A DNA stretch of 37,824 nucleotides from Minisyncoccota bacterium (GCA_041666065.1 JBAYHQ010000002.1:1-37824), one strand, 5' to 3'. Shown: positions 620 to 37,765, counted from the first letter of the stretch. Numbers and translations: made by a program. The notes: generated by a model not told the origin, from the sequence alone.

Positions 620-1348
620 TTTCATACCGATCTCGGAGAGGAAGGTGGCAAGCTCGTCGCCTTGGATAGCGCGCCACGTGCCGGGCTTCAAGTCTTCAAG
701 GCGTATGTTGAGGATCCGCACACGCTCAAGTTCGGCAACTTGGTTGTGGAGCGCTGCGACCATGCGGCGTATCTGATGCTTCTTGCCCTCAGTGAGCGTG
801 ATATTGAAACTCTTCGGGCCGGTCTTGCGCACCTTGCAGGGGGCGGTCAGATATCCTTCTATGTTCACCCCGCTCTCCATAGCTTTCTTGAAGCTGTCGC
901 GGAGCGGCTCGGCGACGCGTACGCGGTACTCTTTGTCGTGGTCGTAATCGGGATTCAGAAGGCGGTCGGTGACACGGCCATCGTTGGTGAGGATAATCAA
1001 GCCACTTGAGTCCTTATCAAGCCGACCGACAGGGAAGACGTCGCTCATCTCCTTCCCCTTCACACTCTGCTTGATATCCTTCTCGCCGAGCTGGGGCGAG
1101 TGGGTGATGACACCGACCGGCTTATTAAACGCGTAGTAGAGGTAGTGCTTCGGTGCTAGAGAGCCGACCATCTCCACCCTATCGCCACGCTCCACCTTAT
1201 CTCCGAGGACGGCGACCTTGCCGTTTATAAGCACGCGCTTTTTGGCGATAAGTTCGTCGGCTGCACGGCGTGTTGCGACGCCCTCGTGGGCGAGGTATTT
1301 GTTGATACGCATCGGGTATTCGCTTTTTTCCTCCGGAGTCTTTGACAT
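617..1348 (-). CDS. Pseudouridine synthase, RsuA/RluB/RluF family (S4 domain plus catalytic domain)
   Basis: S4-like N-terminus (MRINKYLAHEGVATRRAADELI) and catalytic motif GRLDKDSSGLIILTNDG. Start moved from the track ATG at 1363 to the ATG at 1348, because a TATAGT box (1355-1360, minus) lies 6 nt upstream of the second ATG, immediately downstream of the track ATG (1361-1363) and inside the N-terminal extension. Confidence 0.85.
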   Translation of the reverse strand: MSKTPEEKSEYPMRINKYLAHEGVATRRAADELIAKKRVLINGKVAVLGDKVERGDRVEMVGSLAPKHYLYYAFNKPVGVITHSPQLGEKDIKQSVKGKEMSDVFPVGRLDKDSSGLIILTNDGRVTDRLLNPDYDHDKEYRVRVAEPLRDSFKKAMESGVNIEGYLTAPCKVRKTGPKSFNITLTEGKKHQIRRMVAALHNQVAELERVRILNIRLEDLKPGTWRAIQGDELATFLSEIGMK

Positions 1349-1354
1349 TTCTTT

Positions 1355-1360
1355 ACTATA
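1355..1360 (-). promoter_or_regulatory. -10 box TATAGT, 6 nt upstream of the rsuA-like ATG (1348)
   Basis: The minus strand reads caATGTATAGTaaagaaATG. Confidence 0.55.
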
Positions 1361-1431
1361 CATTGTAGTGAGGGAAAGTCCACGCGGCTGTTTCCTATGT
1401 TGCTACATTTTTGTTTATGACGCCCCCGCGG

Positions 1432-1437
1432 TAGTAT
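1432..1437 (+). promoter_or_regulatory. -10 box TAGTAT, 8 nt upstream of the NUDIX ATG (1446)
   Basis: The sequence is gcggTAGTATccactattATG. Confidence 0.45.
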
Positions 1438-1445
1438 CCACTATT

Positions 1446-1970
1446 ATGGAAGCCTACGAGGCACTGCCTGAGTTCGGGATTAAACGTGAGAAAGAGGAAC
1501 GGCGCGACGGCGGCTGCGCGATCGTCTTTGACCCCGAAAGAGGACTCTACGGGGTCGGGAAACGTACCTCAGGCGGGCAGGTACTCCTCTTTGGTGGTGG
1601 AGTAAGCGCCGATGAAGATATTGAGGAGGGCGTGCTCCGCGAAGTGCGAGAAGAAAGCGGGCTCTACGATTTTGCATACACAGAGAATATCGGCGCAGTA
1701 GAGACGCACTATCACAACATCGCTAAGAACGTAGACCGCGTGGCGCGCGCAACGTGCTTCCTTGTGGTGCTCAAGAGCACAGCGCTCGTGCCGACAGAGC
1801 TTGAGGAACACGAGCAGTTCACGCTCGTATGGATGCCCGCAGCGGAGATACGTTCGTGGTGGACAAGCCACAACGAGGGCGAGAACTACAGCCACTGGAT
1901 ATATTTTATGGACAAGGCGCTCGCACGCCTCGCCGCGCTCGGCTACGACACAGCGGGTCAGTCGGAGTAA
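1446..1970 (+). CDS. NUDIX hydrolase
   Basis: Nudix box GGGVSADEDIEEGVLREVREESGL (GX5EX7REUXEEXGU). Start moved to the ATG at 1446, because the upstream part of the track ORF overlaps the divergent gene and promoter region. Confidence 0.85.
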   Translation: MEAYEALPEFGIKREKEERRDGGCAIVFDPERGLYGVGKRTSGGQVLLFGGGVSADEDIEEGVLREVREESGLYDFAYTENIGAVETHYHNIAKNVDRVARATCFLVVLKSTALVPTELEEHEQFTLVWMPAAEIRSWWTSHNEGENYSHWIYFMDKALARLAALGYDTAGQSE

Positions 1971-1977: not shown

Positions 1978-2607
1978 TTAGATCTCTATAACGAGATTCT
2001 CTCTAGGGACACGGACTTTCTGTGACGCGATAGCCGCTTCTGCCGCGATGCGGAAGCCGACCGCCATGATGACGGTCGTATGGAGGCCGCGCTCAGTAAG
2101 GCCGAGTATCTCGTCATACTTCGCAGGGTCAAACCCTTCCATTGGGCAAGCGTCTATACCGAGTACTGCTGCACTTGTGAGGGTGACACCAAGCGCGAGG
2201 TACGCCTGCTTCTTCGCCCATTCAAGTCGCTCGGTCTCGCTCTTGCCCTCCAGAGAGCCCTTGATCATCTGTGAGAGTCCTGCAAGCGACTCAAGAGGAG
2301 TGCCGCGCGTGGCGCTGATGTTTGCGACGAAGGCGTCTACGAGTTCAGGGGTCGGCATCTGTGCCGCAAACACAAACAGCCGCGACGCCTCGGTAATTTG
2401 CGGTTGATTCCACGAGACTTCGCGGAGTTTCGTGCGCACTTCTGGGTCGGACACGACGATGAGATTCCATGGCTGGAGTCCAAACGAGGATGGCGAGAGG
2501 CGCGCCGCCTCAAGGAGCGTGTCTAACTGCTCCTCGGTCAGCTTCTTCTCCGTATTAAACTTCTTGGTTGCTTCACGCCATGTGAGGGCTTGTATGATTG
2601 ATTGCAT
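1978..2607 (-). CDS. Nitroreductase-family NAD(P)H oxidoreductase
   Basis: Typical nitroreductase N-terminus (REATKKF..., LLEAARLSPSSFGLQPW). The ATG at 2607 is preferred over the GTG at 2628; a TAACGT (TANNNT) box lies 8 nt upstream. The start is uncertain by 7 codons. Confidence 0.8.
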   Translation of the reverse strand: MQSIIQALTWREATKKFNTEKKLTEEQLDTLLEAARLSPSSFGLQPWNLIVVSDPEVRTKLREVSWNQPQITEASRLFVFAAQMPTPELVDAFVANISATRGTPLESLAGLSQMIKGSLEGKSETERLEWAKKQAYLALGVTLTSAAVLGIDACPMEGFDPAKYDEILGLTERGLHTTVIMAVGFRIAAEAAIASQKVRVPRENLVIEI

Positions 2608-2725
2608 AAAACAGTACGTTAACGGCACAGGGTAATAGAGTCATCCTACCAGAGGCGGTTTTCGGTGGTACTGGGGATTGTCGCGGCTACTAGGATTTAT
2701 AGACAAATTACGATATGGTGGCTTG

Positions 2726-4189
2726 ATGGCACGAGAAGAAAGCGTTATCAGTTTTGAGGAAGTTTCCTTTGAATACGGGCACAACAAGCCGATCCTTGAT
2801 GAGGTGAGCTTCACGCTGCGTCGCGGGATGAAGATGGCGGTGATGGGGCAGAACGGTGCGGGGAAGTCCACCCTCTTCTCGCTGATGACTGCTGAGCGTA
2901 AGCCCGAAAACGGCGAGATACATATGAGCCATGGTATGAAGGTGGCAATAGCCGCGCAGGTCATACCGCGTGAGAAGATGGAGCTTACCATCCGCGATTT
3001 TTTCGCCTCCTATTTTGATAAAAAGGTGTACGACATAGATCCGAAGATAGACGCTGTGCTTGAGGTGGTGAATCTAAAACATCACGAGAAACTGCACGAC
3101 CGTCTCGTGAAGAGCTTCTCTGGCGGTCAGCAGGCGCGTCTCCTCCTCGCCTCGGCGCTCATACAGGACCCCGACCTACTCCTCTTGGACGAGCCGACGA
3201 ATAATCTTGATACTGCCGGCATTGAACACCTCACGAAGTTCCTTGTGGACTACGACAAGACCTGCGTCGTGATCTCGCACGATTCAGAGTTCTTAAACGC
3301 CTTCACGACGGGCGTGCTCTATCTAGACGTCTTCACGCGTAAGATTGAACAGTATTCAGGGAACTATCACGACGTGCAGCGCGACATACTCATTCGTATA
3401 GAGAAGGAGAATCGGAAGAACGCCCAGCTTGAGAAGAAGATTCAGGAGAACAAGGACAAGGCGAACTTCTTCGCACAGAAGGGCGGTAAGATGCGTCTCG
3501 TCGCCAAGAAAATGCGCACGGAAGTGGAAGAGATGGAGGAGGAGAAGGTGGACGTACGCAAGGAGGACAAGACTATTCGACCGTTCATCATCCCCGCGCA
3601 GGAGGAATTGAGTGGCGTCGTCTTCGTGCTTACTTCCTACTCGGTGCTCTCGTCAAAGGGTAAGCCGATCGCTAAGAAGGCGAACGTGTCGCTTAGGAAA
3701 AATAATCACTTGCTCCTGCGCGGGCCGAACGGCATCGGCAAGAGCACTCTGCTGGAAGCGATCGCGAGAGGCGTCGCTGAGGGGGCGACTATCACTGAGG
3801 GGGTGAAGGTTGGGTATTACCGACAGGACTTCTCCACACTTGATTTTGACCAGACCGTCTTTGACGCACTCATGACGGTCATGGGTCAACCCGACGAGAA
3901 GCGCATGCGCACGGTCGCTGCTGGCTTCCTGATCACGGGCGATACGATATATACGAAGATCGGCAGCCTCTCAGAGGGGCAGAAGGGGCTTGTCGCCTTC
4001 GCCTCGCTCGTACTGGAGCGGCCAGGTCTCTTGATACTGGACGAGCCGACGAACCACATCAACTTCCGCCACCTGCCGCTTATCGCCAAGGCGCTTGATC
4101 AGTATGCGGGCGCGATGATACTCGTCTCCCATGTGCCGGAGTTTGTGGAGCAGATACGCGTGGATGACATTCTAGACTTGGAGAAATAA
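2726..4189 (+). CDS. ABC-F family ATPase (two ABC domains, no membrane domain; ribosome-associated type)
   Basis: Domain 1 has Walker A GQNGAGKST, signature FSGGQQARL and Walker B LLLLDEPTNNLD. Domain 2 has GPNGIGKST, LSEGQKGLV and LLILDEPTNHIN. A charged K/E-rich linker joins them. The ATG at 2726 is chosen over the track start at 2678. Confidence 0.85.
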   Translation: MAREESVISFEEVSFEYGHNKPILDEVSFTLRRGMKMAVMGQNGAGKSTLFSLMTAERKPENGEIHMSHGMKVAIAAQVIPREKMELTIRDFFASYFDKKVYDIDPKIDAVLEVVNLKHHEKLHDRLVKSFSGGQQARLLLASALIQDPDLLLLDEPTNNLDTAGIEHLTKFLVDYDKTCVVISHDSEFLNAFTTGVLYLDVFTRKIEQYSGNYHDVQRDILIRIEKENRKNAQLEKKIQENKDKANFFAQKGGKMRLVAKKMRTEVEEMEEEKVDVRKEDKTIRPFIIPAQEELSGVVFVLTSYSVLSSKGKPIAKKANVSLRKNNHLLLRGPNGIGKSTLLEAIARGVAEGATITEGVKVGYYRQDFSTLDFDQTVFDALMTVMGQPDEKRMRTVAAGFLITGDTIYTKIGSLSEGQKGLVAFASLVLERPGLLILDEPTNHINFRHLPLIAKALDQYAGAMILVSHVPEFVEQIRVDDILDLEK

Positions 4190-4222: not shown

Positions 4223-4228
4223 TATAAA
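4223..4228 (+). promoter_or_regulatory. -10 box TATAAA, 9 nt upstream of the nucleotidyltransferase ATG (4238)
   Basis: The sequence is gagtTATAAAaagtactacATG. Confidence 0.4.
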
Positions 4229-4237
4229 AAGTACTAC

Positions 4238-4933
4238 ATGCAAGCAGTCATACTCGCCGCAGGAGAAGGGAAGCGTATGCGACCGCTTACGCTTGACCGC
4301 CCGAAGCCGCTCGTGCTCGTGGCGGGGCGTCCCATACTTGCCTACATCATGGACGCACTTCCGAGCGAGGTGGACGAGGTCATATTGGTAGTCGGGTACA
4401 AGGGCGACATGATTCGGGAACATTTCGGGAGCTCATACAAAGGCCGGACGATACGCTACGTGCACCAGTGGATGCCGGCCGGCACGGCGCACGCACTCTC
4501 CATGGCAGAGCCGCTCCTTCGCGATGAGCGCTTCATCTTCATGAACGGCGACGATCTGCACGGCACGGGCGCGTTTACCGAAGCACTGCAGCACCCGCTT
4601 GCGCTCCTCGCCGCGACGCACGACGATCCGTCAAAGTTCGGTGTCATAGAGCTCCACGAGGATGGTACGCTCGCGAGCATCATAGAGAAGCCCGAAGTTC
4701 CGCCAACGAACCTCATCTCCACGGGCGCGATGGTGCTTGATAAACGCATATTCAATTACGAGGCGGTGCGGCACGAAAGCGGCGAATATTTCATGACCTA
4801 CCCGCTCGGCCTGCTCGCGAAGGAGTACCCCATACAAGTCATCACTCAGAATTTCTGGGTTCCCATCGGCTGTCCGGAAGATATTGCCTCCGCAGAAGCG
4901 AAGCTTGGTGAACGCAAAAGCGGGGCCGCATGA
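4238..4933 (+). CDS. Sugar-phosphate nucleotidyltransferase (NTP_transferase fold)
   Basis: N-terminal LAAGEGKRMRPLT...PKPLV signature of sugar-1-phosphate nucleotidyltransferases. The ATG at 4238 is preferred to the TTG at 4217. The stop overlaps the next start (ATGA). Confidence 0.75.
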   Translation: MQAVILAAGEGKRMRPLTLDRPKPLVLVAGRPILAYIMDALPSEVDEVILVVGYKGDMIREHFGSSYKGRTIRYVHQWMPAGTAHALSMAEPLLRDERFIFMNGDDLHGTGAFTEALQHPLALLAATHDDPSKFGVIELHEDGTLASIIEKPEVPPTNLISTGAMVLDKRIFNYEAVRHESGEYFMTYPLGLLAKEYPIQVITQNFWVPIGCPEDIASAEAKLGERKSGAA

Positions 4934-5849: not shown

Positions 5850-5855
5850 TAGAAT
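5850..5855 (+). promoter_or_regulatory. -10 box TAGAAT, 9 nt upstream of the NRAMP ATG (5865)
   Basis: The sequence is agtgTAGAATgggggcacgATG. Confidence 0.45.
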
Positions 5856-5864
5856 GGGGGCACG

Positions 5865-7244
5865 ATGAACCGCGGAGAATTTGATAAAGATTTTGAGAAA
5901 GTGTTTGAAGCACCTGCAGAGTTGCTTGAAGAGGGGATTGAGTTTGCGGAGAAAGAGGAGAAAGTGCTTATCAGCAAGAAGCCGTTTAAGCTCGCGGAGG
6001 AATATTGGGACACACTCGGTCCGGGGCTCACGACCGGTGCCGCTGACGACGATCCTTCCGGTATTGCCACCTACTCGCAAGCAGGCGCACAGTACGGTCT
6101 CCAGCTCATCTGGCTCTCCCTCTTCACCTATCCCTTTATGGCGACGGTGCAGGAGATGTGTGCGCGCATCGGCATCGTGAGCGGACAGGGCCTCGCCGCG
6201 AATATCCGCAAGCATTACCCAGCGCGGACGCTCTACGTGGTGACCGCGCTTCTCTTTTTCGCAAACGCGCTCAATATCGCCGCCGACCTCGGCGCAATGT
6301 CGGCGGCTACGCGCCTCCTGCTACCGCACGTCGGGTTTGAACTGCTCGTCATCTTCTTCGCGCTCGTCTCGCTCGGTCTGCAGATATTCACAACGTATGC
6401 GCGGTATGCGAAATATCTGAAATATCTCACGCTCGCGCTCCTCTCGTACGTCGCTGTCGCATTCTCCGTAGGACTTGATTGGGGCGATGTCCTGCACCAC
6501 ACTCTTATACCGACGCTTTCATTTACCAAAGATCAGATATTCCTCGTCTGCGCAGTGCTCGGCACGACTATCTCGCCGTACCTCTTCTTCTGGCAGACTT
6601 CGCAGGAAGTGGAAGAACAGATATTGAAAGGCGAAGTGACCGTCGCGGAACGCCGCGCACAAGTGAGTCCGCAGTCGTTACGCCGCATGCGTACCGATGT
6701 ATGGAGCGGCATGTTCTTCTCCAACCTTGTCACCTTCTTCATATTCGCCGCTTGCGCGGGGACGCTCTACGCGCATGGCATCACGAACATCGCGACGGCG
6801 GACCAAGCGGCTCTTGCGCTCCGGCCCTTCGGCGATTTCGCCTTCCTCCTCTTCGCGGTCGGCATCGTGGGCACGGGCCTCCTCGCCGTGCCGGTCTTGG
6901 CAGGCTCTACCGCCTACGCGCTCTCAGAGAGCTTCGGTTGGACAAACGGCCTGTATCACAAGCTGGACAAGGCCTACGCCTTCTACGGCGTCATCATTGT
7001 CTCCATGCTGCTTGGCATCGCTGCGAACTTCGTACATCTGGATCCGATCAAGGCGCTCATCTATGCCGCAGTTGCAAATGGCGTTATCGCACCGGTGGTG
7101 CTCTTCTTCGTCGTGCGGCTCTCAAGCAATACGCAGGTCATGGGCGAACACACGAACCGTCCGCTTGTCTCCAAGCTCGGCTGGCTGACCATACTCTTCA
7201 TGGCCGTGTCGGGTATTGCGGCTATTGCGACGCTCTTCCTCTAG
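5865..7244 (+). CDS. NRAMP-family divalent metal cation transporter
   Basis: Multi-pass hydrophobic protein with an NRAMP-like motif AADDDPSGIATYSQAGAQYG near TM1. A TAGAAT box lies 9 nt upstream of the ATG. Confidence 0.8.
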   Translation: MNRGEFDKDFEKVFEAPAELLEEGIEFAEKEEKVLISKKPFKLAEEYWDTLGPGLTTGAADDDPSGIATYSQAGAQYGLQLIWLSLFTYPFMATVQEMCARIGIVSGQGLAANIRKHYPARTLYVVTALLFFANALNIAADLGAMSAATRLLLPHVGFELLVIFFALVSLGLQIFTTYARYAKYLKYLTLALLSYVAVAFSVGLDWGDVLHHTLIPTLSFTKDQIFLVCAVLGTTISPYLFFWQTSQEVEEQILKGEVTVAERRAQVSPQSLRRMRTDVWSGMFFSNLVTFFIFAACAGTLYAHGITNIATADQAALALRPFGDFAFLLFAVGIVGTGLLAVPVLAGSTAYALSESFGWTNGLYHKLDKAYAFYGVIIVSMLLGIAANFVHLDPIKALIYAAVANGVIAPVVLFFVVRLSSNTQVMGEHTNRPLVSKLGWLTILFMAVSGIAAIATLFL

Positions 7245-7254: not shown

Positions 7255-7260
7255 TATACT
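7255..7260 (+). promoter_or_regulatory. -10 box TATACT, 6 nt upstream of the SDR ATG (7267)
   Basis: The sequence is gcgcTATACTaaacagATG. Confidence 0.55.
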
Positions 7261-7266
7261 AAACAG

Positions 7267-8022
7267 ATGGAACACAAACCGATTGCCGAGCTCATGGATC
7301 TATCGGGAAAGGTCGCCATCGTGACCGGTGGTGCGGTGGGTATCGGCTACGCGATAGCGAGCCGGCTCGCTGAGGCGGGTGCGAAGGTGCTCGTGGCCGA
7401 CAGAGATGCAGCAGGGGCGGAGGCTGCTGCCGCGAAGCTCGGCGGAGCTGCGATAGCAGTTGACGTATCTGACGAGTCGCAAGTGGAGACGATGGTAGCG
7501 AAAGCGGTCACTGAGTTGGGCGGCGTGGATATACTCGTGAACAATGCCGGCATTTATCCGGCGAAGCCGGTGCTTGAAGCGACGAAAGAGGACTTTGAGA
7601 AGATCATCCACACGAACCTCATGGGTGCGTTCTTCGCAGCGAAGGCCGCAGCGAAGGCTATGGTCGCACAGGGGAGGGGCGGCACTATCATCAACATAAC
7701 CTCCATAGACGCACTGCACCCGTCGTTCGTCGGGCTCGCGTTCTACGACGCGAGTAAGCACGGTCTCTGGGGCTTCACCAAGAACCTCGCGCTTGAGCTC
7801 GCGCCTCACAACATCCGAGTGAACGCTATCGCCCCCGGCGGCGTCGCGACACCAGGGACGAACATGGGGCAGGTCGCCGACGCCTTCCTCGCGGAGATTC
7901 CAATGCACCGCATGGCCGACGCCGACGAGATAGGGAAGGTGGCACTCTTCCTCGCCTCCGACCTCTCTTCCTATATGACCGGCTCGCAGGTCGTGGTAGA
8001 TGGCGGCACGCTGCTTGCATAA
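7267..8022 (+). CDS. Short-chain dehydrogenase/reductase (SDR)
   Basis: TGGAVGIGYAI (TGxxxGxG), NNAG and the YDASK (YxxxK) catalytic motif. The ATG at 7267 is preceded by TATACT at 7255-7260. Confidence 0.85.
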   Translation: MEHKPIAELMDLSGKVAIVTGGAVGIGYAIASRLAEAGAKVLVADRDAAGAEAAAAKLGGAAIAVDVSDESQVETMVAKAVTELGGVDILVNNAGIYPAKPVLEATKEDFEKIIHTNLMGAFFAAKAAAKAMVAQGRGGTIINITSIDALHPSFVGLAFYDASKHGLWGFTKNLALELAPHNIRVNAIAPGGVATPGTNMGQVADAFLAEIPMHRMADADEIGKVALFLASDLSSYMTGSQVVVDGGTLLA

Positions 8023-10671: not shown

Positions 10672-11615
10672 GCTGCCTCCTCGGCTTCAATGTCGGCAAT
10701 TATCGCCGCATTAATTTGGCACTGCTTCTCGGCTGCGGCCGCCGCGGCTTCGCGGTAGTCCGCTCTCATGCTCGCCCCCGTTATCGCTGACGATGAGCTG
10801 AGAAGTACCGTCCCAGGACCATAGTATGCAGCGCGGAGCGTTGCTTCCGTGTGTCCCTTCTGCGCGCCAATCCCCGGCACGAGGAACATTGCATCGTCAC
10901 CGACGATCTCTCGCGCGCGGTACAGATGATGGTTAAAGACTTGAGCATCGCCGTATTCTGTCTCGGCGATTGTGCCGTTGTATTGGTCGAGTTGCGAAGT
11001 GTCGTGTGCAGCACCCATGACGACACCGAACCTGTCGACCACGCCGGCATTCTTTGCCCAGTCAAACGCGCAGGTAAGGAAGTACTCCCACACCCGCAAT
11101 CCGTTGGCGAGGCGAGCATCCTGCGTTTGCCACGCCGGAGGATTGCTGGTCCTGCCGAGCGTAATGAAGCTGGAGGTAGTGCCTTTCACTGCACTGGCCT
11201 CGACGAGTGACGTCAGGCAGTCGCTCCCCATGTAGGGGTTGAAGTTTACGGCGTCGGCGTCGTCCAACATGAAGTGGGTGTGGCCATACATCGTTTGCGT
11301 GCGGCCGATGTCTCCGCGCTTACAATCCAGAATCACGGGGATTCCCGGATAGCGCGTATGTATGTACGCTATCAGGATACGCAGGGCGACCTCGCCATCG
11401 GGAAGTCTCTCCCAGTGGGCGCGCTGCGGCTTGAAGGCCGCGGCGGAGTCATGAGTTGCGTCGACGATTGCCATCATATGCACGGCGGATCGGATGCCCG
11501 CACTCGCACCATGGATGCAGACCGGTATCTTCTGCTTGTCGGGGTCAAGCCCGATGCAGAAGCGTCCCGGTTTCTCGCTTTGACGCGTCGCTACAAGTTC
11601 CTTGAGTGTCGGCAT
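10668..11615 (-). CDS. pyrF: Orotidine-5'-phosphate decarboxylase, long (type 2) form
   Basis: GLDPD and DCKRGDIG motifs. The second ATG (11615) is chosen because the SD AGGAG (11622-11626, minus) abuts the first ATG and lies 6 nt from the second. Confidence 0.85.
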   Translation of the reverse strand: MPTLKELVATRQSEKPGRFCIGLDPDKQKIPVCIHGASAGIRSAVHMMAIVDATHDSAAAFKPQRAHWERLPDGEVALRILIAYIHTRYPGIPVILDCKRGDIGRTQTMYGHTHFMLDDADAVNFNPYMGSDCLTSLVEASAVKGTTSSFITLGRTSNPPAWQTQDARLANGLRVWEYFLTCAFDWAKNAGVVDRFGVVMGAAHDTSQLDQYNGTIAETEYGDAQVFNHHLYRAREIVGDDAMFLVPGIGAQKGHTEATLRAAYYGPGTVLLSSSSAITGASMRADYREAAAAAAEKQCQINAAIIADIEAEEAA

Positions 11616-12360: not shown

Positions 12361-12373
12361 GGTGCGGTATACT
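12361..12373 (+). promoter_or_regulatory. Promoter block GGTGCGGTATACT; its -10 box lies 6 nt upstream of the smpB ATG (12380)
   Basis: An identical 13-mer recurs at 37408-37420. The track's GTG start at 12362 lies inside this block. Confidence 0.55.
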
Positions 12374-12379
12374 CCGCCT

Positions 12380-13320: not shown

Positions 13321-13353
13321 GCAAAAAGCTCCCGAAGGGAGCTTTTTGCTTTG
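13321..13353 (+). terminator. Intrinsic terminator after the tmRNA
   Basis: GCAAAAAGCTCCC gaa GGGAGCTTTTTGC followed by TTTG. Confidence 0.85.
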
Positions 13354-13361
13354 TACTGCGT

Positions 13362-13367
13362 TATAGT
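13362..13367 (+). promoter_or_regulatory. -10 box TATAGT, 6 nt upstream of the ftsH ATG (13374)
   Basis: The sequence is gcgtTATAGTatttccATG, located after the tmRNA terminator. Confidence 0.55.
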
Positions 13368-13373
13368 ATTTCC

Positions 13374-21384: not shown

Positions 21385-21393
21385 TGGTATAGT
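21385..21393 (+). promoter_or_regulatory. Extended -10 TGGTATAGT, 6 nt upstream of the amidase ATG (21400)
   Basis: The sequence is ctttTGGTATAGTtcctgtATG, immediately after the upstream terminator T-tract. Confidence 0.6.
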
Positions 21394-21399
21394 TCCTGT

Positions 21400-24040: not shown

Positions 24041-24046
24041 TATACT
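24041..24046 (+). promoter_or_regulatory. -10 box TATACT, 8 nt upstream of the malic enzyme ATG (24055)
   Basis: The sequence is gcgggTATACTggtgctctATG. Confidence 0.5.
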
Positions 24047-24054
24047 GGTGCTCT

Positions 24055-26705: not shown

Positions 26706-26714
26706 TGGTATACT
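26706..26714 (+). promoter_or_regulatory. Extended -10 TGGTATACT, 6 nt upstream of the GGDEF ATG (26721)
   Basis: The sequence is agcTGGTATACTgtggctATG, starting 2 nt after the TPM gene stop. Confidence 0.6.
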
Positions 26715-26720
26715 GTGGCT

Positions 26721-27660: not shown

Positions 27661-27663
27661 CAG

Positions 27664-27903
27664 TTACAGTTTCGGATAGTTTTTCTTCAGGTATTCAACA
27701 ATATCCTCTGACTCATACATCTCTATGTTCTTGTCGCTGTCTACGAGGTAGGGGACTTGGCGTTTGCCACCACGTGCGACGAGCTCTGCCGCGACCGCAT
27801 CGTCGGCGATATTTCTCTCCTCAAAGGTGATACCGAGCTCCTCGCCGGCAGCGAAGACACGGTGGCAGAACGGGCAGCCGGTTTTTACGTATAGGGTAAG
27901 CAT
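27664..27903 (-). CDS. Glutaredoxin / NrdH-like small redoxin
   Basis: A 79-aa protein with a CPFC active site at the N-terminus and a QVPYL motif. TGGTATGTT lies 8 nt upstream of the ATG. Confidence 0.85.
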   Translation of the reverse strand: MLTLYVKTGCPFCHRVFAAGEELGITFEERNIADDAVAAELVARGGKRQVPYLVDSDKNIEMYESEDIVEYLKKNYPKL

Positions 27904-27911
27904 AGAGACTC

Positions 27912-27920
27912 AACATACCA
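27912..27920 (-). promoter_or_regulatory. Extended -10 TGGTATGTT, 8 nt upstream of the glutaredoxin ATG (27903)
   Basis: The minus strand reads aaTGTGGTATGTTgagtctctATG. Confidence 0.5.
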
Positions 27921-27943: not shown

Positions 27944-27949
27944 TACAAT
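27944..27949 (+). promoter_or_regulatory. -10 box TACAAT, 6 nt upstream of the DUF192 ATG (27956)
   Basis: The sequence is gcgtgTACAATagacacATG. Confidence 0.55.
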
Positions 27950-27955
27950 AGACAC

Positions 27956-28432
27956 ATGAACCGGTATCTTCTTGCGGGACTCGTCGTGCTTGCCGTAGGC
28001 GTGGCGGCTGGGCTCTATAGGACAGCCGCGCTGGAGGGGCCTCTTGCAGTCTCTTCACCCTCGGTAGCCGAGTTTGGCGGCGTGTCCTTGAGACTAGACT
28101 ATGCGACAACCAGCGAATCCCGCGAGCGCGGGCTTAGCGGCCGAGCGAGCATACCGAGCGACTATGGCATGCTCTTCGTCTTCCCGTCTGACGACCGGTA
28201 TGGCTTCTGGATGAGGGATACGCTCGTGCCGCTGGACATATTCTGGCTGGACAGTAAAGGACAGGTGGTTTCCCTCGCCGAGGATGTACAGCCCTCGTCG
28301 TATCCGAGTGTCTTTTATCCGAGTGAGCCGGCGAGGTATGTCTTAGAGACGTCTGCAGGCTTCGCTTCCGCACACGCAGTCGCGACCGGCACACCGCTTT
28401 TATTGAAAAATTTTCCAACCGTTTTGAAGTAA
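27956..28432 (+). CDS. DUF192-domain protein with N-terminal membrane anchor
   Basis: GLSGR...GMLFVF...GFWMRDTLVPLDIFWLD matches the DUF192 pattern. The ATG at 27956 lies 6 nt after TACAAT. The track extension overlaps the glutaredoxin gene. Confidence 0.8.
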   Translation: MNRYLLAGLVVLAVGVAAGLYRTAALEGPLAVSSPSVAEFGGVSLRLDYATTSESRERGLSGRASIPSDYGMLFVFPSDDRYGFWMRDTLVPLDIFWLDSKGQVVSLAEDVQPSSYPSVFYPSEPARYVLETSAGFASAHAVATGTPLLLKNFPTVLK

Positions 28433-28523
28433 TGCTGTCCACATGGTGTTTACCAAAAGGAGGAGTAAACTTGAGATTAAAGAAGTGAAATTATTTATTC
28501 GTTTTCAATAACTTACCCTGTCC

Positions 28524-30911
28524 ATGTCCAAAGTCGCAAAAGTTTCCGCCCGTGCAAAGACGGCACCGCAAGCCGTCGTCAAGGCAGTGGAAGTGCCGAT
28601 CTCCAAGGAAACGCGACGCTACCGAGAGATGATTCCGCAGATAGAGAAACGTGACGGTCGTCTCGTGCCGTTTGATTTTGATAAGATCGTGAACGCCGTG
28701 TGGAAGGCGATGCTCGCAGCCGATGAAGGAAGTCAGGAAGATGCGGCGCTTGTGGCACACCAAGTCGCCGGTGAGATCGGTCGTTTCGCCAAGAAGTACA
28801 AGAGTTTCCTTCCGACCGTGGAAGGCATGCAGGACTCCATAGAGAAATACCTCATTTTGAACGATTATGTGAAGACGGCGAAGGCGTACATCCTCTACCG
28901 CGACAAGCGCGCACAGCTCCGTGCCGCACATGTGGAAGTGCCTGAACATGTACGCAAACTCGCAGAGGAAAGCAAGAAATATTTTGAGGGCAACGCGCTC
29001 GGCGAGTTCGTGTATCTGCGCACGTATGCGAAGTGGATACCGGAAGAGGGTCGTCGTGAGACGTGGGTGGAGACAGTAGATCGCTACGTGAATTTCATGC
29101 GCGAGAACTTGGGCGACAAGCTTACTGAGAAGGAGTACGCCGAAGTGCGCATGGGTATCTTGAAGCAGGAAGTGATGCCGTCTATGCGGCTCATGCAGTT
29201 CTCAGGTGAGGCGGCGCGCCGGTGCAACACCTGCGCTTACAACTGCACCTTTACGGCACCAACGAAGCTAGAAGATTTCGCGGAGATCATGTACCTCTCC
29301 ATGCAAGGGTGCGGCGTAGGCTTCGCCGTAGAGAGTCAGAACGTGGAGCAGTTCCCGCAAATCATGAAGCAGATCGGGAAGAAGCTTGAGACACACGTCA
29401 TTGACGATTCCAAGGAGGGCTGGTGCGACGCGCTTACACTCGGTGTGAAGACGTGGTACTCAGGCAAGGATATTGATTTTGATTTTGGTGCGATACGCCC
29501 CGCAGGTGCGCGTCTGAAGACTATGGGTGGCAAAGCGTCAGGTCCAGAGCCGCTTCGCTCGCTCCTCGCCTTCGCTCGCGAGCGCATCTTCGCTCGTCAG
29601 GGTCGCCGTCTGCGCGCCATAGACGTGCACGATATTATCTGCAAGATAGGCGAGTGCGTGGTCGCCGGTGGCGTACGCCGCACCGCTATGATCTCGCTCT
29701 CCGATCTAGATGACACCGACATGCGCGACGCTAAGAAAGGTCAGTTCTACATGACCGATCCGCACCGCTCGGTAGCGAACAACTCGGCTGTGTATGAGGC
29801 CCAGCCGACCAACGCCGAGCTGATGGATGAGTGGGTGGCGCTTATGAAGAGCGGTTCGGGAGAGCGCGGCATCTTCAACCGCGGCGCGCTTGGCGAGACT
29901 ATGCCGAAGCGCCGCAAGGACTATTTCAAGACGGTCGGCTTTATCAGCGAGGACGGCGTGGTACGCGGCTCTATCGGCACGAATCCGTGCGCCGAGATCA
30001 TCCTGCAGTCCAAGCAGTTCTGCAACCTCTCCGAGGTCATCGCGCGCGCACACGATACCGAGGCAAGTCTGCTCCGCAAGGCGCGTCTCGCTTCCATACT
30101 CGGTACCTACCAATCAACGCTCACCAAGTTCGGCTATATATCTAAGGAGTGGACCGATCACTGTGCCACAGAGCGCCTTCTCGGTGTCTCGGTGACGGGT
30201 CAGTGGGATTCGCCCGCCGCTCGTCGTCCGGAGGTCTTGCGTAAGATACGCGATATGGCGGTGAAGACGAACAAGGCGTACGCAAAGCGTTTCGGGGTAG
30301 AACAGTCTATGTCGGTCACGGCAGTGAAGCCGTCGGGCACCGTGTCGCAGACCTTTGACTGTGCATCGGGCATCCACCCGCGTCACGCACCATACTATAT
30401 CCGTCGTGTGCGCATCAGTGCGACCGACTCACTCTTCAAGCTCATGCGCGATCAGGGTGTGCCGTACTATCCGGAAGTTGGGCAGTCCATGGAAGAGGCA
30501 AATACCTTCGTGTTGGAATTCCCCGTCAAAGCACCGGATCATTCTAAAGAGGCGCGGTTCAAGGACGATCTCACCGCGCTTGATCAGTTGGAATACTGGA
30601 AACTGGTGAAGCTCAACTACACGGAACACAATCCCTCTGCAACAATATCGGTATCTGAGGATGAATGGATATCGGTCGTGGACTGGGTGCAGAAGAATTG
30701 GAATATCATCGGCGGGCTCTCCTTCCTCCCAAGAAGCAATCACGTGTATCGCCTCGCGCCATACGAGACTATTACTAAGGAGGAGTACGAGGCGCGTATG
30801 TCCCGCTTCCCGAAAGTGGACTACAGCAAGCTCACGGCGTACGAAAGGCAGGACGAATCAGACATGAAGAGGGAACTCGCTTGTGCTGGCGGCACGTGCG
30901 AAATAATGTAA
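28524..30911 (+). CDS. nrdJ: Ribonucleotide reductase, class II (adenosylcobalamin-dependent, RTPR/NrdJ-like) with N-terminal ATP-cone
   Basis: ATP-cone (IEKRDGRLVPFDFDKIV...YILYRDKR), RNR core with IRPAGARLKTMGGKASGPEPL, active-site TNPCAEI, and a C-terminal redox pair CAGGTCEIM. There is no adjacent nrdB-like gene and no glycyl-radical C-terminus. The class assignment rests on my recollection of RTPR-like sequences (YLRTYAKW..EGRRETW). Confidence 0.7.
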   Translation: MSKVAKVSARAKTAPQAVVKAVEVPISKETRRYREMIPQIEKRDGRLVPFDFDKIVNAVWKAMLAADEGSQEDAALVAHQVAGEIGRFAKKYKSFLPTVEGMQDSIEKYLILNDYVKTAKAYILYRDKRAQLRAAHVEVPEHVRKLAEESKKYFEGNALGEFVYLRTYAKWIPEEGRRETWVETVDRYVNFMRENLGDKLTEKEYAEVRMGILKQEVMPSMRLMQFSGEAARRCNTCAYNCTFTAPTKLEDFAEIMYLSMQGCGVGFAVESQNVEQFPQIMKQIGKKLETHVIDDSKEGWCDALTLGVKTWYSGKDIDFDFGAIRPAGARLKTMGGKASGPEPLRSLLAFARERIFARQGRRLRAIDVHDIICKIGECVVAGGVRRTAMISLSDLDDTDMRDAKKGQFYMTDPHRSVANNSAVYEAQPTNAELMDEWVALMKSGSGERGIFNRGALGETMPKRRKDYFKTVGFISEDGVVRGSIGTNPCAEIILQSKQFCNLSEVIARAHDTEASLLRKARLASILGTYQSTLTKFGYISKEWTDHCATERLLGVSVTGQWDSPAARRPEVLRKIRDMAVKTNKAYAKRFGVEQSMSVTAVKPSGTVSQTFDCASGIHPRHAPYYIRRVRISATDSLFKLMRDQGVPYYPEVGQSMEEANTFVLEFPVKAPDHSKEARFKDDLTALDQLEYWKLVKLNYTEHNPSATISVSEDEWISVVDWVQKNWNIIGGLSFLPRSNHVYRLAPYETITKEEYEARMSRFPKVDYSKLTAYERQDESDMKRELACAGGTCEIM

Positions 30912-30969: not shown

Positions 30970-31352
30970 GAGACTAGGCCGATAAGCCGAATTCTGTCGT
31001 GGACAATCATTTATCTGGGCCGGTAATTACTCACCGGCTCAAGCGGCACTCCGACAACGCTTCGCGTTGCGATATTTAAACATTTAAATATCGGCGCTTT
31101 GCGTCGCTGGCACGGCCTTGCATGCGGGTAAGGATTTGTTCGTTGCATTCCTGCCTTACGACAGGCCTATTCCACGGGGGAATCCGCGGCCTTTCGGCGT
31201 TGGCGTTTCTGTGGTCACCTCTATCCTCGCGGACGACGGGCGTTACCCGCTACCTATTTCCCACCTTGCGGTAGAAGCATGTTCGGACTTTCCTCCCTCG
31301 TCACGCCAGAGCCTTGCGGCAGCGGACAAGAGCGATTGTCTAGCCTAGTCTC
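30970..31352 (-). ncRNA. rnpB: RNase P RNA, bacterial type A
   Basis: The minus-strand sequence contains the universal GGGAGGAAAGUCCG (P4 5' strand). Its 3' region GCCGCUUGAGCCGGUGAGUAAUUACCGGCCCAGAUAAAUGAUUGUCCACGACAGAAUUCGGCUUAUCGGCCUAGUCUC is nearly collinear with E. coli M1 RNA. P1 pairs GAGACUAGGC (5') with GCCUAGUCUC (3'). A perfect extended -10 box lies just upstream. The ends are accurate to within a few nt. Confidence 0.9.
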
Positions 31353-31357
31353 CTCCC

Positions 31358-31366
31358 ATTATACCA
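31358..31366 (-). promoter_or_regulatory. Consensus extended -10 TGGTATAAT for rnpB
   Basis: The minus strand reads attgTGGTATAATgggagGAGACUAGGC. The box ends 5-6 nt before the first P1 nucleotide. Confidence 0.7.
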
Positions 31367-33915: not shown

Positions 33916-33921
33916 TATTAT
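33916..33921 (+). promoter_or_regulatory. -10 box TATTAT, 6 nt upstream of the murJ ATG (33928)
   Basis: The sequence is cggagTATTATggaggtATG. Confidence 0.5.
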
Positions 33922-33927
33922 GGAGGT

Positions 33928-35610
33928 ATGGTTCGCGGCATTCTAGAACGCATATCGGCACCGGTACGCGGCCTGCATCAGGCCGCGTACTTGCTCGCAG
34001 CACTCACGCTCGCGTCGCAAGCACTCGCGCTCCTTCGCGACCGTACCTTTGCGCACATGTTCGGCGCAGGACAGGTGCTGGACCTCTACTACGCGGCGTT
34101 TCGCGTGCCGGATCTCGTTTTCGCGCTCGTCGCATCGCTCGTCTCTGCGTATGTCCTCATACCGCGTATCACAGGGATGGATAGGGAGGGAACTCGCCGC
34201 CTCCTCTCTGAGTCGGCATCGTTTCTGTTTGGCGTCGGAGGGCTTCTCTCTCTCGTGCTTGCCTTCTTTATGCCGACGTTCCTCGCTTTCTTGTATCCGA
34301 ACTTCGTGGCGTTGCCGCAGTACGCCGACTTCGTGTTTCTCGCACGCCTGCTTCTCGTCCAGCCGATACTCCTCGGCCTCTCAGGAGTTCTGGGAAGCGT
34401 GACGCAAGTGCATCGGCGTTTCATGCTGTTTGCTATTTCGCCGGTTCTCTATAACCTCGGCATCATCTTCGGCGCACTTGTCCTCTATCCTTTCTACGGG
34501 CTCATGGGGATAGGCGTTGGCGTAGTACTGGGCGCGATCGCGTATCTCTTCGTCAATGTCCCCGTCGTGCTTCGTGCCGGCGTGATGCCGCGGCTGTGCA
34601 TGCCGAGCTTCAGTCTGATGTCGTCGGTGGTGCGCGACTCCGTGCCGCGTTCGCTCGCACTCGGCATGGGTTCGGTCACTGCGCTCGTCCTCACGTCGCT
34701 TGCGTCTACGGTGGGTGTCGGAGCAGTGTCGGTGTTTACCTTCGCAAGTAATCTCGCGGCGGTGCCGCTCGCGCTCATCGGGGCGTCGTATTCCGTTGCG
34801 GCGTTTCCCGCTCTGTCTGAGGCATCGGCGCTTGAGCGGCGCGAAGAATTCACTCGCATCCTCTCGGCGAGCGCGCGACACATAATCTTGTGGTCGGTTG
34901 TATCGCTCGGTCTCATCGCCGTGCTTCGTGCCCACATAGTGCGCGTCATTCTCGGTACGGGAGCGTTTGATTGGGATGCGACGCGCATCACTGCTGCGCT
35001 TCTTGCTATACTCGCGGTCGGTCTTGTGGCACAAGGGCTCGTTCTACTCTTCTCGCGAGCGCTCTACGCGGTACGCCAGTCGTGGCGGCCACTCGTCTAC
35101 CAGTTCCTCGGCGGGGCGGTTACGGTGCTTCTCGCGCTCTACTTCCTGTCTATGCGGGATACCGGTCTCCAGACGTCGCTTGCGGCAGTTCTGAAGGTCG
35201 GCGACGTGTCCGGCACGGCTGTCTTACTCATCGCTCTTGCAGCGACCTTGGGTCAGATATTCTTGGCACTTCTCTCGCTTATCGCCCTCCGCAGTACCTC
35301 ACCAGGGCTCGGCGGTATGCTCACGCGGTCGCTCATAGACGGTGCGGTCGCGGCCTTCGCGGGCGGCGTCGCGACCTATGCCGTGCTCGCGTTTGAGGGC
35401 GGTATCGCTCCGCTTACGACCCTAGCGGCTGTCTTCACACAAGGATTCATTGCTGGTATCGTGGGCTTAACTGCTGCGGCGCTTGCCCTCTTCTTCATAG
35501 AAAATGAGGAGTTCCGCATCGTGGCGAATGCCGTGATGAGACTTGTGAGTCTCCGAGAAAGAAAGGCCGTTGTGCTCGCGCCGTCCGCAGAAGAGTCACC
35601 ACATCCGTGA
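33928..35610 (+). CDS. murJ: Lipid II flippase MurJ (MviN family)
   Basis: N-terminal MurJ signature (LLRDRTFAHMFGAGQVLDLYYAAFRVPDLVF) and about 14 predicted TM helices. The ATG at 33928 lies 6 nt after TATTAT. Confidence 0.85.
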   Translation: MVRGILERISAPVRGLHQAAYLLAALTLASQALALLRDRTFAHMFGAGQVLDLYYAAFRVPDLVFALVASLVSAYVLIPRITGMDREGTRRLLSESASFLFGVGGLLSLVLAFFMPTFLAFLYPNFVALPQYADFVFLARLLLVQPILLGLSGVLGSVTQVHRRFMLFAISPVLYNLGIIFGALVLYPFYGLMGIGVGVVLGAIAYLFVNVPVVLRAGVMPRLCMPSFSLMSSVVRDSVPRSLALGMGSVTALVLTSLASTVGVGAVSVFTFASNLAAVPLALIGASYSVAAFPALSEASALERREEFTRILSASARHIILWSVVSLGLIAVLRAHIVRVILGTGAFDWDATRITAALLAILAVGLVAQGLVLLFSRALYAVRQSWRPLVYQFLGGAVTVLLALYFLSMRDTGLQTSLAAVLKVGDVSGTAVLLIALAATLGQIFLALLSLIALRSTSPGLGGMLTRSLIDGAVAAFAGGVATYAVLAFEGGIAPLTTLAAVFTQGFIAGIVGLTAAALALFFIENEEFRIVANAVMRLVSLRERKAVVLAPSAEESPHP

Positions 35611-37403
35611 ACCAAAAAAACATCCGCAATTTTTCCATTATCGCCCATGTTGACCATGGGAAATCTACGCTGGCTGACCGCCTGCTTGAGCGTACGGGGG
35701 CTATCCCTGAACGCAAGATGCGCGACCAAGTATTGGACCGCATGGATCTGGAGCGCGAGCGCGGCATTACTATAAAAATGCAGCCAGTGAGGATGCAGTA
35801 TGGCGAGTACATTTTCAACCTGATTGATACGCCAGGGCACATAGATTTCTCGTACGAGGTCTCGCGCGCGCTCAAGGCGGTTGAGGGCGTGCTCTTGCTC
35901 GTAGACTCCACGCAAGGCGTGCAGGCACAGACACTGACCACTCTTTCTATGGCACAGGCACAGGGGTGTGTCATAATCCCTGTCGTCTCAAAGATAGATT
36001 CACCTGCCGCACGGGTAGACATCGTCGCGAGTGAGCTCGCGAAGCTCATCGGTGTCTCTCGCGAAGAGGTCATCGCGGTGTCAGGGAAGACCGGCGCAGG
36101 CGTGGATGAACTTCTGGAAGCTATCGCGCAGTGCATCCCCTCGCCACGCGCTTCTGTGGCCGCTATAGGCGATGAACCGCGCGGTCTTGTCTTTGACTTC
36201 TCGTACTCAAAGCACCGCGGCGTCGCTGTGTACCTGCGTGTCTTTGATGGTATTTTCAAGAAAGGGCAGCCGCTCTCTTTCCGAGCAGCAGGTAAGGAGT
36301 TTATCGCGCTTGAGACCGGCATCTTTACGCCCGAAGAGACGCCGGCCGACTCGCTGTCTGCTGGGGAGATAGGGTACATCGTGACGGGCATCAAGGAGGC
36401 CGGTGTTGTCGCTGTCGGCGACACTATCGGTGCGGCGAAGGGCTCGCTTCCTGCGCTCGCCGATTTTGAGCGTCCGCGGCCGGTGGTGTGGGCCTCGGTG
36501 TATCCGGAGAATCAGGACGATCTGCCGCTCCTTCGCCAATCGCTTGAGCGCCTCCGACTCTCCGACTCCTCGCTTTCGTTTGAGGAGGAGTCGTCCGGCG
36601 TACTCGGCAGGGGGTTCCGATGCGGATTCCTCGGCCTCCTGCATCTTGAGATAGTGACCGAGCGTTTGCGCCGCGAGTTCGGCCTGAAGCTCATCGTCAC
36701 GATACCGACCATTTCGTATGTGGTGACGGGGACGAACGGCGTGCGCGAAGTGGTGTACACGCCGGCGAAGTTCCCCGAACACGGCAACATAGCGCTCATT
36801 GAAGAGCCATGGGCGAAGGTCATCATCATCATTCCGCCAGAGTCGCTCTCCTCGCTCGTGCAACTCCTCTACGAGCACGAAGCGCAGACACTCGGTACCG
36901 AGACGTACGAGGACGGTCGCATAGAGATGGCGGTGGAGATGCCGCTGCGCGAACTCATGCGCGGATTCTTTGATACACTCAAGAACATATCGTCGGGCTA
37001 CGCGTCCCTCTCGTACGAAATACTTCCTGAGCGCCCCGCAGACGTGGTGCGGCTAGACATACTTGTCGCGGAAGAGCCGGTGCCTGCGTTCGCACGCGTG
37101 ATAGCTCGTCGCCGCATACAGGAAGAAGCAGAGAAGATGGTGGAGAAGCTCCATGCAGCACTCCCGAAACAGCTCTTTACCACAAAGATTCAGGCGAAGG
37201 TACAGGGGCGCATCATTGCTTCTAAGACGCTCTCGGCGATGCGCAAGGATGTCACCGGCTACCTCTACGGGGGCGATGTGTCGCGCAAGAACAAGCTGCT
37301 AGACAAACAGAAGCGCGGGAAGAAGAAGATGCTTGAGCGCGGGACAGGAAAGGTGAATATCCCTGAGGAAGTCTTCATGAAAATGGTGCAAAACGACGCG
37401 TAA
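35607..37403 (+). CDS. lepA: Translation elongation factor 4 (LepA)
   Basis: [28 protein letters not shown] and a LepA-specific C-terminal domain. The GTG start overlaps the murJ stop (GTGA). Confidence 0.9.
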   Translation: MNQKNIRNFSIIAHVDHGKSTLADRLLERTGAIPERKMRDQVLDRMDLERERGITIKMQPVRMQYGEYIFNLIDTPGHIDFSYEVSRALKAVEGVLLLVDSTQGVQAQTLTTLSMAQAQGCVIIPVVSKIDSPAARVDIVASELAKLIGVSREEVIAVSGKTGAGVDELLEAIAQCIPSPRASVAAIGDEPRGLVFDFSYSKHRGVAVYLRVFDGIFKKGQPLSFRAAGKEFIALETGIFTPEETPADSLSAGEIGYIVTGIKEAGVVAVGDTIGAAKGSLPALADFERPRPVVWASVYPENQDDLPLLRQSLERLRLSDSSLSFEEESSGVLGRGFRCGFLGLLHLEIVTERLRREFGLKLIVTIPTISYVVTGTNGVREVVYTPAKFPEHGNIALIEEPWAKVIIIIPPESLSSLVQLLYEHEAQTLGTETYEDGRIEMAVEMPLRELMRGFFDTLKNISSGYASLSYEILPERPADVVRLDILVAEEPVPAFARVIARRRIQEEAEKMVEKLHAALPKQLFTTKIQAKVQGRIIASKTLSAMRKDVTGYLYGGDVSRKNKLLDKQKRGKKKMLERGTGKVNIPEEVFMKMVQNDA

Positions 37404-37407
37404 AGCG

Positions 37408-37420
37408 GGTGCGGTATACT
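37408..37420 (+). promoter_or_regulatory. Promoter block GGTGCGGTATACT; its -10 box lies 6 nt upstream of the ftsB-like ATG (37427)
   Basis: This is the same 13-mer as at smpB. The track's GTG start at 37409 lies inside it. Confidence 0.55.
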
Positions 37421-37426
37421 GGAGCC

Positions 37427-37765
37427 ATGCGCGCAAAAGAGTGGCAGAGAGGGGTTCTGATAGGCGGTCTTTTCCTCGTGGCGTTCTGGCTCATAACGCT
37501 CATAAGCGGGCTCGCGGGGAAGGCGCATATAGCCGTATCGCAAGCCAACGACGCGAAACGGCAATACGAGTCGTTTGAAGCCCGTAAGGCGATGCTTGAG
37601 GCAAATCTCGCCGCGCTCGCTACAGAGCGCGGACGGGACGCGGCAGTCAGGACGGCGTTCGGGGTTGCGCGCCCAGGCGAAGAGGTTATCGTGGTAGTAC
37701 CACCGGCTACCGCGACCCCCACGGTCACGCAGAAGTGGTGGCAGAAGCTGTTTCTTTGGTTTTGA
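37427..37765 (+). CDS. Septum formation initiator (FtsB/DivIC-like) small membrane protein
   Basis: A single N-terminal TM, then a coiled coil (KRQYESFEARKAMLEANLAAL) and a conserved-type tail (AVRTAFGVARPGEEVIVV). The ATG at 37427 lies 6 nt after TATACT. Confidence 0.7.
   Translation: MRAKEWQRGVLIGGLFLVAFWLITLISGLAGKAHIAVSQANDAKRQYESFEARKAMLEANLAALATERGRDAAVRTAFGVARPGEEVIVVVPPATATPTVTQKWWQKLFLWF

Follow-up and report, generated by a model that had tools for sequence, protein, structure and literature searches.

The window analysed here, a stretch of 37,824 nucleotides (nt) from a Minisyncoccota bacterium (GCA_041666065.1 JBAYHQ010000002.1:1-37824), has a G+C content (GC) of 57% and holds, besides its protein-coding genes, the RNase P RNA, the transfer-messenger RNA (tmRNA) and three tRNAs. 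The element under study is a -10-like hexamer, TANNNT, that ends 6-9 nt upstream of the initiation codon in many of these genes including smpB, ftsH, recG, murJ and those encoding a malic enzyme and an N-acetylmuramoyl-L-alanine amidase. A sequence-only reading of this DNA had placed such a box exactly 6 nt before the ATG of ten genes and 8-9 nt before that of five others, and had predicted that leaderless mRNAs were pervasive. In the analysis described below, sigma-70-type promoters that consist of a -10 element only very probably place the predicted transcription start at the ATG and would give rise to leaderless mRNAs for about half of the genes (23 of 42, in ~50 kb).

Spacing between the -10 box and the start codon

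The 45 nt located 5' of each of the 15 claimed starts were inspected together with all strong -10-like hexamers in the window (Table 1). The ten boxes claimed to lie 6 nt from the ATG (TANNNT-N6-ATG) were all found. The longer spacing was present before the NUDIX, malic enzyme and glutaredoxin genes (N8) and the NRAMP gene (N9), while the fifth gene named, a nucleotidyltransferase, has only TATAAA at this position. An ABC-F ATPase gene (ATG 2726) and several genes in the flanks, none of which had been listed earlier, are boxed as well. The boxed starts in the window are all ATG, and GTG is found at equal spacing in one flank gene and several orthologs.

An annotation-free scan of both strands of the window for TATANT-N(k)-ATG returned eight occurrences at k=6 and zero to two at each of the other values of k from 0 to 25. 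No peak was obtained when GTG, TTG, CTG, ATC or ACG was substituted for ATG. For the annotated starts, independent gene calls were taken from the JGI metagenome contig Ga0376277_0000251 (325 kb, sample 3300037810) and a near-identical ENA contig. The set of 42 genes came from the window extended along one contig by 4.1 kb on the left and 7.8 kb on the right and used JGI starts where these were retrieved, with starts entered by hand for recG, an open reading frame (ORF) of 1024 amino acids (aa), the amidase (start of the sequence-only reading) and a 433-aa gene. TANNNT occurred at spacers 6, 7, 8 and 9 in 14, 0, 6 and 3 genes, respectively, over a background of 0.88 per spacer across spacers 12-45, with Poisson P values of 9e-13 (spacer 6) and 5e-12 (spacers 6-9). 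The spacer-6 count reached a maximum of 5 in 2000 mononucleotide shuffles of the upstream regions, and a box at spacer 6 was seen before 0.4% of in-frame internal ATGs and all other ATGs.

The histogram of box-to-start distances compared with shuffles, which had been named as a check of the prediction, features a sharp peak at 6 nt with a shoulder at 8-9 nt, and the computational checks that had been named all favoured the prediction. The leaderless geometry is pervasive to the extent of ~23 of the 42 genes. Among the rest are genes with a putative Shine-Dalgarno (SD) sequence and operon-internal genes, along with genes that have a short leader devoid of SD and, in the case of lepA, translational coupling. 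It could be argued that the peak is due to chance or to starts chosen to fit the box, as the earlier reader had picked the 'corrected' starts after viewing the upstream sequence. However, an equal peak was obtained free of any annotation, the starts of two independent gene callers gave P~1e-12, and Pfam boundaries and ortholog N-termini concur with them. Cherry-picking of start codons is refuted by the annotation-free scan together with the gene-caller statistics, and the probability that chance or selection accounts for the geometry is negligible.

Table 1. Boxes, spacers and start codons at features of the window (Nx, spacer of x nt between box and start).
Feature	Coordinates	Strand	Elements
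rsuA-like (S4 + PseudoU_synth_2)	1346..1360	-	TATAGT 1360-1355, N6, ATG 1348; JGI start 1348
NUDIX	1432..1448	+	TAGTAT, N8, ATG 1446; JGI and ENA start 1446
Nitroreductase	2605..2621	-	TAACGT (2616-2621), N8, ATG 2607; weak candidate, not listed earlier
ABC-F ATPase	2714..2728	+	TATGGT 2714, N6, ATG 2726; JGI and ENA start 2726
Nucleotidyltransferase	4223..4240	+	TATAAA without final T, N9, ATG 4238; weak case
NRAMP	5850..5867	+	TAGAAT, N9, ATG 5865
SDR	7255..7269	+	TATACT, N6, ATG 7267; NRAMP stop 11 nt before box start
bipA/typA (contrast, leadered)	8037 (box), 8075 (ATG)		TTGTATATT
Operon-internal gene (contrast)	10672..10685	-	SD-like GAGGAGG 4 nt before ATG 10671
smpB	12368..12382	+	GG-TATACT, N6, ATG 12380
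ftsH with tmRNA terminator	13321..13376	+	Hairpin 13321-13349, 12 nt, TATAGT 13362-13367, N6, ATG 13374
recG	18194..18208	-	TATACT 18208-18203, N6, ATG 18196
1024-aa protein (contrast)	18218..18253	+	GG-TATAGT 27 nt before ATG 18251; short SD-less leader
Amidase	21388..21402	+	GG-TATAGT, N6, ATG 21400
Leadered gene (contrast)	22700 (box), 22734 (ATG)		TGCTACAAT
Malic enzyme	24041..24057	+	GG-TATACT, N8, ATG 24055
GGDEF protein	26709..26723	+	GG-TATACT, N6, ATG 26721; preceding stop 5 nt before box start
Glutaredoxin	27901..27917	-	GG-TATGTT, N8, ATG 27903
DUF192	27944..27958	+	TACAAT, N6, ATG 27956; 52-bp divergent intergenic region shared with glutaredoxin
Ribonucleotide reductase	28509..28526	+	TAACTT, N9, ATG 28524; weak candidate, not listed earlier
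RNase P RNA promoter	31351..31363	-	GG-TATAAT (31363-31358), N6 gggagg, A 31351
Leadered gene (contrast)	31423 (box), 31463 (ATG)		GGTATACT
murJ	33916..33930	+	TATTAT, N6 (ggaggt), ATG 33928
112-aa membrane ORF ('ftsB-like')	37415..37429	+	GG-TATACT, N6, ATG 37427

Two opposed promoters each are found in the divergent intergenic regions 27904-27955 (52 bp), 18197-18250 (54 bp) and 1349-1445 (97 bp). Both promoters are of the leaderless type, with little other sequence, in the glutaredoxin/DUF192 region (starts 27903 and 27956) and the rsuA-like/NUDIX region (1348 and 1446), while the region between 18196 and 18251 combines a leaderless-type promoter for recG with a leadered one for the 1024-aa protein, for which an exact-protein look-up gave no match. 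The ORF at 37427-37765 had no Pfam match at E<=1e-3, and its label 'ftsB-like' is tentative.

Promoter character of the box

An alignment of 26 sites gave the pattern G(-14) G(-13) T A T A n T, with the consensus G-G-TATAMT, and no trace of a -35 element as the information content upstream of -14 was zero. A canonical sigma-70 promoter (-35 TTGACA, 17 nt, -10 TATAAT) was ruled out, given that no -35 hexamer is conserved 16-18 nt upstream. A scan for two-hexamer sigma-70 promoters showed no enrichment relative to shuffles (9 vs 7.8 expected; 12 vs 7.5), and such a scan is uninformative for promoters of this kind because they are -10-only.

The box is also found before genes that are not translated. 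The RNase P RNA had been put forward as an internal control and served as one, since A 31351, with which helix P1 opens in the Rfam alignment, lies 6 nt after TATAAT. About 15 of 45 tRNA genes from this genome and its relatives have TA[N][AG]NT upstream of the mature 5' end at 8-13 nt, in most cases 9-11 nt, and the tRNA-Ser and tRNA-Ile of this genome have TATAAA and TAATAT, respectively, at 9 nt (read by eye). Boxes at 9-11 nt were noted for tRNAs in the window (15942-16016, 27576-27661), in locus L001 (13844-17565) and at the tRNA genes of loci L003-L028. This spacing implies that the 5' leaders of tRNA precursors, as presented to RNase P, would be very short at only ~2-4 nt. Ahead of ftsH, the tmRNA gene is closed by a terminator hairpin of 13 bp, after which come 12 nt, the box, 6 nt and the ATG, and the box squeezed between terminator and ATG leaves no room for a leader or for another promoter. 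As the motif precedes the RNase P RNA and tRNAs and sits after the ftsH terminator, it is a promoter and not a ribosome-binding signal. What the data show is thus the box's identity as a promoter, together with its geometry, its enrichment and its conservation across a Paceibacteria clade.

A ribosome-binding or start-context signal acting at the mRNA level without SD, of the Bacteroidota-like 'group B' type, was weighed since the motif is A/T-rich and occupies the position of a ribosome-binding site. It would also suit such a signal that no more than 48% of the 16S rRNAs of Parcubacteria have a detected anti-SD motif (PMC9297842). It would, however, be difficult to reconcile with the same motif, complete with G-G, preceding untranslated RNAs and occurring 27-34 nt before other genes, with its fit to the -10 consensus down to the invariant T, A and last T, or with its absence at the operon-internal 4930 and 10671 and at lepA and the lack of enrichment at internal ATGs. 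We regard this explanation as very improbable. In group B genomes the motif stands before all genes, operon-internal ones included, and falls within leadered mRNAs, and such a distribution was not observed. An A/T-rich start context was likewise rejected as an explanation.

RNA polymerase normally starts ~7 nt past the -10 hexamer, with a purine at +1 after a pyrimidine at -1 preferred. A -10 hexamer that ends 6 nt ahead of the start codon would direct transcription from the A of the ATG, and with the less frequent spacers of 8-9 nt transcription may start 1-2 nt before the ATG. The resulting mRNAs would have neither a 5' untranslated region (UTR) nor an SD, and the ribosome with initiator tRNA would bind the 5'-terminal AUG by the leaderless pathway. 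Where exactly transcription starts, and how these mRNAs are translated, is inferred from the geometry and the start rules of RNA polymerase.

Leadered genes, read-through and the assignment of starts

The boxed genes had been reported to lack an SD. This is the case functionally, as none of the genes with a spacer of 6-9 nt has a GGAG, GAGG or AGGA whose end lies 4-12 nt before the ATG, although GGAGG at murJ and GGAG at the 37427 ORF occur 1 nt and 2 nt from the ATG, respectively, both within the spacer. GAGGAG-type motifs are located 4-7 nt before the operon-internal or leadered starts 10671, 11615, 12244 and 15838, and GAGGAG- or GGGAGG-type motifs at this distance were counted for five or six genes including a flank gene at -3127, which is modestly above chance. 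An annotation-free SD scan (GGAG, GAGG, AGGAG) was dominated by coding periodicity, missed even the SD of Chloroflexi and was not used. Several leadered genes are also without SD.

Leadered genes 18251, 22734, 31463 and 8075 have the motif 27-34 nt upstream, and it is missing before the operon-internal or coupled genes 4930, 10671 and lepA (35607). The architecture therefore appears mixed, like that of the GeneMarkS-2 group C genomes. At bipA/typA (window 8034-8077) the box lies ~30 nt upstream and is followed by a small G+C hairpin and a T-run that abuts ATG 8075. A hairpin and T-run immediately 5' of the bipA ATG are also present in the L003 ortholog, and this leader may be attenuator-like. 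LemA (window 25185-25223, ATG 25221) has the box TGATACACT ~26 nt upstream, and its orthologs in L003, L022 and L028 have TATAAT, TATCAT or TATACT at N6-7. As the spacing of the LemA box differs among relatives, the leadered or leaderless state switches between close relatives. Other hairpins in the window include a perfect palindrome with a 20-bp stem at 570-617, which lies between two convergent genes and is likely a bidirectional terminator, and a terminator-like hairpin at 25776-25816 (ccgcccgc...gcgggcgg, then ttt) that ends 12 nt before ATG 25817, with no recognisable -10 box or SD between this hairpin and the ATG.

Several observations weigh against promoters that fire at the start codon as the source of the mRNAs. 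Three or four boxes are weak (TATAAA 4223, TAACGT 2616-2621, TAACTT 28509), and the 8-9-nt spacers are also compatible with a start that leaves 1-2 nt upstream of the ATG. Transcript-like contigs starting at the ATGs were sought through the exact proteins of murJ, NRAMP, smpB and ftsH, and metagenome contigs only were returned. Five boxed genes (5865, 7267, 24055, 26721 and 37427) lie only 16-23 nt behind a same-strand gene with no terminator between, and read-through transcripts with internal ATGs probably coexist at such tightly packed genes. It is conceivable that polycistronic read-through is dominant and that the promoters are real and make a minor contribution, the internal ATGs being used independently of SD through reinitiation or unstructured A/U-rich starts, and 22734, 31463, 18251 and 8075 do initiate SD-less from short leaders. 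However, a strong terminator 12 nt ahead of the box shields ftsH, the divergent pairs 1348/1446, 18196/18251 and 27903/27956 cannot be fed by read-through, and internal initiation needs neither an exact 6-nt register nor the conservation of that register in orthologs. Dominant read-through is thus considered unlikely.

Start codons were examined through gene calls, domain boundaries and homology. The longer N-termini seen for some of these genes had been dismissed as artefacts that run through promoter DNA. JGI uses the starts of the sequence-only reading wherever they were retrieved (the amidase start at 21400 had no retrieved call), and the longer N-termini arise only in a mechanical ORF list and not in the JGI calls. 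ENA calls deviate from the boxed starts of that reading only at 1363 and 4277. The Pfam SmpB profile 3-143 matched residues 5-146 counted from ATG 12380, the S4 domain of the rsuA-like protein begins at residue 13 and adh_short of the SDR protein at residue 15. Profile position 2 of NTP_transferase falls on residue 3 from ATG 4238, and because the domain begins there the ENA start at 4277 would truncate it. The long version of ftsH, from ATG 13209, overlaps the tmRNA gene. In tblastn comparisons with related loci, smpB, recG and malic enzyme aligned from residues 1-5.

The JGI and ENA starts conflict at six genes (1348/1363, 4238/4277, 11621/11615, 12226/12244, 15676/15838 and 35742/35607). 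The JGI start of lepA at 35742 drops the P-loop AHVDHGKST, and as this lies upstream of 35742 the start is placed at GTG 35607. The overlap of this GTG with the stop codon of murJ indicates translational coupling of lepA. In two of the six conflicts one caller therefore misses the better-supported start, ENA by a call at 4277 that cuts 13 residues from NTP_transferase and JGI by its call for lepA. Gene finders oriented towards the SD risk such miscalls in metagenome-assembled genomes (MAGs) of Parcubacteria and the Candidate Phyla Radiation (CPR).

Conservation in relatives and comparison with known systems

Relatives were identified by FtsH in one-genome-per-species GTDB contigs. The closest were 'Candidatus Kaiserbacteria' and Patescibacteria MAGs with 81-92% identity, followed by MAGs labelled Taylor-, Nomura- and Paceibacteria, then other CPR at <=57% and then Chloroflexi. 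The comparison set consisted of ~25 related genomes with a GC of 32-60%, and statements at the clade level rest on ~20 kb per genome around this one anchor gene. TANNNT, usually TGnTATAAT-like, is located 6-9 nt before the homologous ftsH start in ~20 of 26 loci. Boxes were also found 5-9 nt (mostly 6-7) before smpB in ~17 of 23 orthologs, 6-9 nt before recG in ~15 of 18 Paceibacteria-like orthologs and 6-9 nt before the malic enzyme gene in all four related loci, and the flanks of these conserved boxes are otherwise unalignable across the orthologs of the four genes. The ftsH loci of more distant CPR have a box 10-20 nt upstream, and those of Chloroflexi have GGAGG followed by GTG. An excess of TANNNT-N6-9-ATG at ORF starts, amounting to 2-5.5 per 10 kb, was seen in nearly all loci with an FtsH identity of >=58%, while it was ~0 in most of the other CPR loci and likewise in Chloroflexi.

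When this genome and its close clade were pooled, spacers 6, 7, 8, 9 and 10 were represented by 81, 44, 26, 25 and 13 boxes, respectively, with a background of ~9-17. In the pooled set the ATG is preceded by a pyrimidine-rich position, which is what position -1 of a transcription start should look like. This genome prefers a spacer of 6 (14 genes) and never uses 7, and L006, L009 and L023 prefer 6 also. In L022, whose FtsH is 85% identical, the spacer is 7 at ftsH, smpB, recG and the malic enzyme gene. A preference for 7 is also seen in L003, for 8-9 in L015 and for 9 in L004. The contrast with L022 (14:0 vs 0:5) has a probability of ~1e-4 (Fisher-type, by hand), and the preferred spacer between -10 and ATG appears to be species-specific. 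A conserved linkage involves a tRNA-Ile with the anticodon UAU (window 15942-16016), which is found near ftsH in nearly every Paceibacteria-like locus (L003-L028, L081). It usually lies shortly downstream, and several loci have it on the opposite strand.

Parcubacteria, besides the limited detection of an anti-SD mentioned above, often lack bS21 and have a short bS1 (Tsurumaki et al. 2022, PMC9297842). That study shares the lineage with ours and does not mention leaderless mRNAs or the promoter-start geometry (PMC9297842). The 16S rRNA 3' end that would carry the anti-SD was not found in the window or in the related loci examined. A reduction of anti-SD, bS21 and bS1 fits a lower dependence on SD, and we infer a link between it and the leaderless geometry, which offers a possible mechanism for translation initiation in those Parcubacteria reported without detectable anti-SD and bS21. 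It may be, although the case falls slightly short of evenly balanced, that leaderless expression is the main mode across a large Paceibacteria/Parcubacteria clade of Kaiser-, Taylor- and Nomurabacteria-like genomes (GC 32-60%) and not across the whole CPR, that it explains the absence of detectable anti-SD and of bS21 reported for many Parcubacteria, and that the species-specific spacers reflect lineage-specific tuning of the RNA polymerase start site. The arrangement of promoter, transcription start and start codon within ~15 bp would permit intergenic regions of 16-52 bp and so contribute to genome streamlining. In the searchable literature, 'leaderless' taken together with Candidate Phyla Radiation, Patescibacteria or Parcubacteria gave incidental mentions or nothing, and no report of this layout in the lineage was found. 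The leaderless architecture itself is known, and what would be new is its presence in a Paceibacteria (Kaiserbacteria-like) lineage.

Promoters of Actinobacteria in group C have a -35 that is weak or absent. Under the GeneMarkS-2 classification, 90% of Actinobacteria and 97% of Deinococcus-Thermus belong to group C, in which the distance from the Pribnow box to the start is 6-8 nt (PMC6028130). An enrichment of TANNNT ~6-8 nt before start codons, which is required of such genomes, was found here, and the boxed genes are without an SD at functional distance as is also required. Like the group C Actinobacteria Mycobacterium tuberculosis, Streptomyces and Corynebacterium, in which TANNNT lies 6-8 nt before first operon genes without SD and other genes use an SD (PMC6028130), the genome described here has boxed genes without SD, and it may likewise combine the two kinds of start. 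An estimated 25-50% of transcripts are leaderless in these Actinobacteria (PMC6028130). The present case differs in belonging to the Patescibacteria/Paceibacteria with an ultra-small genome, in start codons that are almost exclusively ATG, and in transcription starts that are predicted. Group C genomes with genetic code 11 are almost all of high GC (10.1101/2022.07.25.500264), unlike the 57% found here and the values down to 32% in relatives that share the trait.

Differential RNA sequencing (dRNA-seq) and proteomics showed 60% of the mRNAs of Deinococcus deserti to be leaderless, with the transcription start exactly at the start codon in 47% and a 5' UTR of <6 nt still counted as leaderless (de Groot et al. 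2014, PMC4007540). For M. tuberculosis and D. deserti, leaderless genes of the geometry seen here have been confirmed by experiment, through dRNA-seq and proteomics (PMC6028130; PMC4007540). The genome analysed here is like D. deserti in that the promoter abuts the start codon in a majority-scale fraction of genes, and unlike it in that the evidence consists of sequence geometry and comparative conservation. Majority-scale leaderless expression would thereby reach a third major bacterial lineage, low-GC members included.

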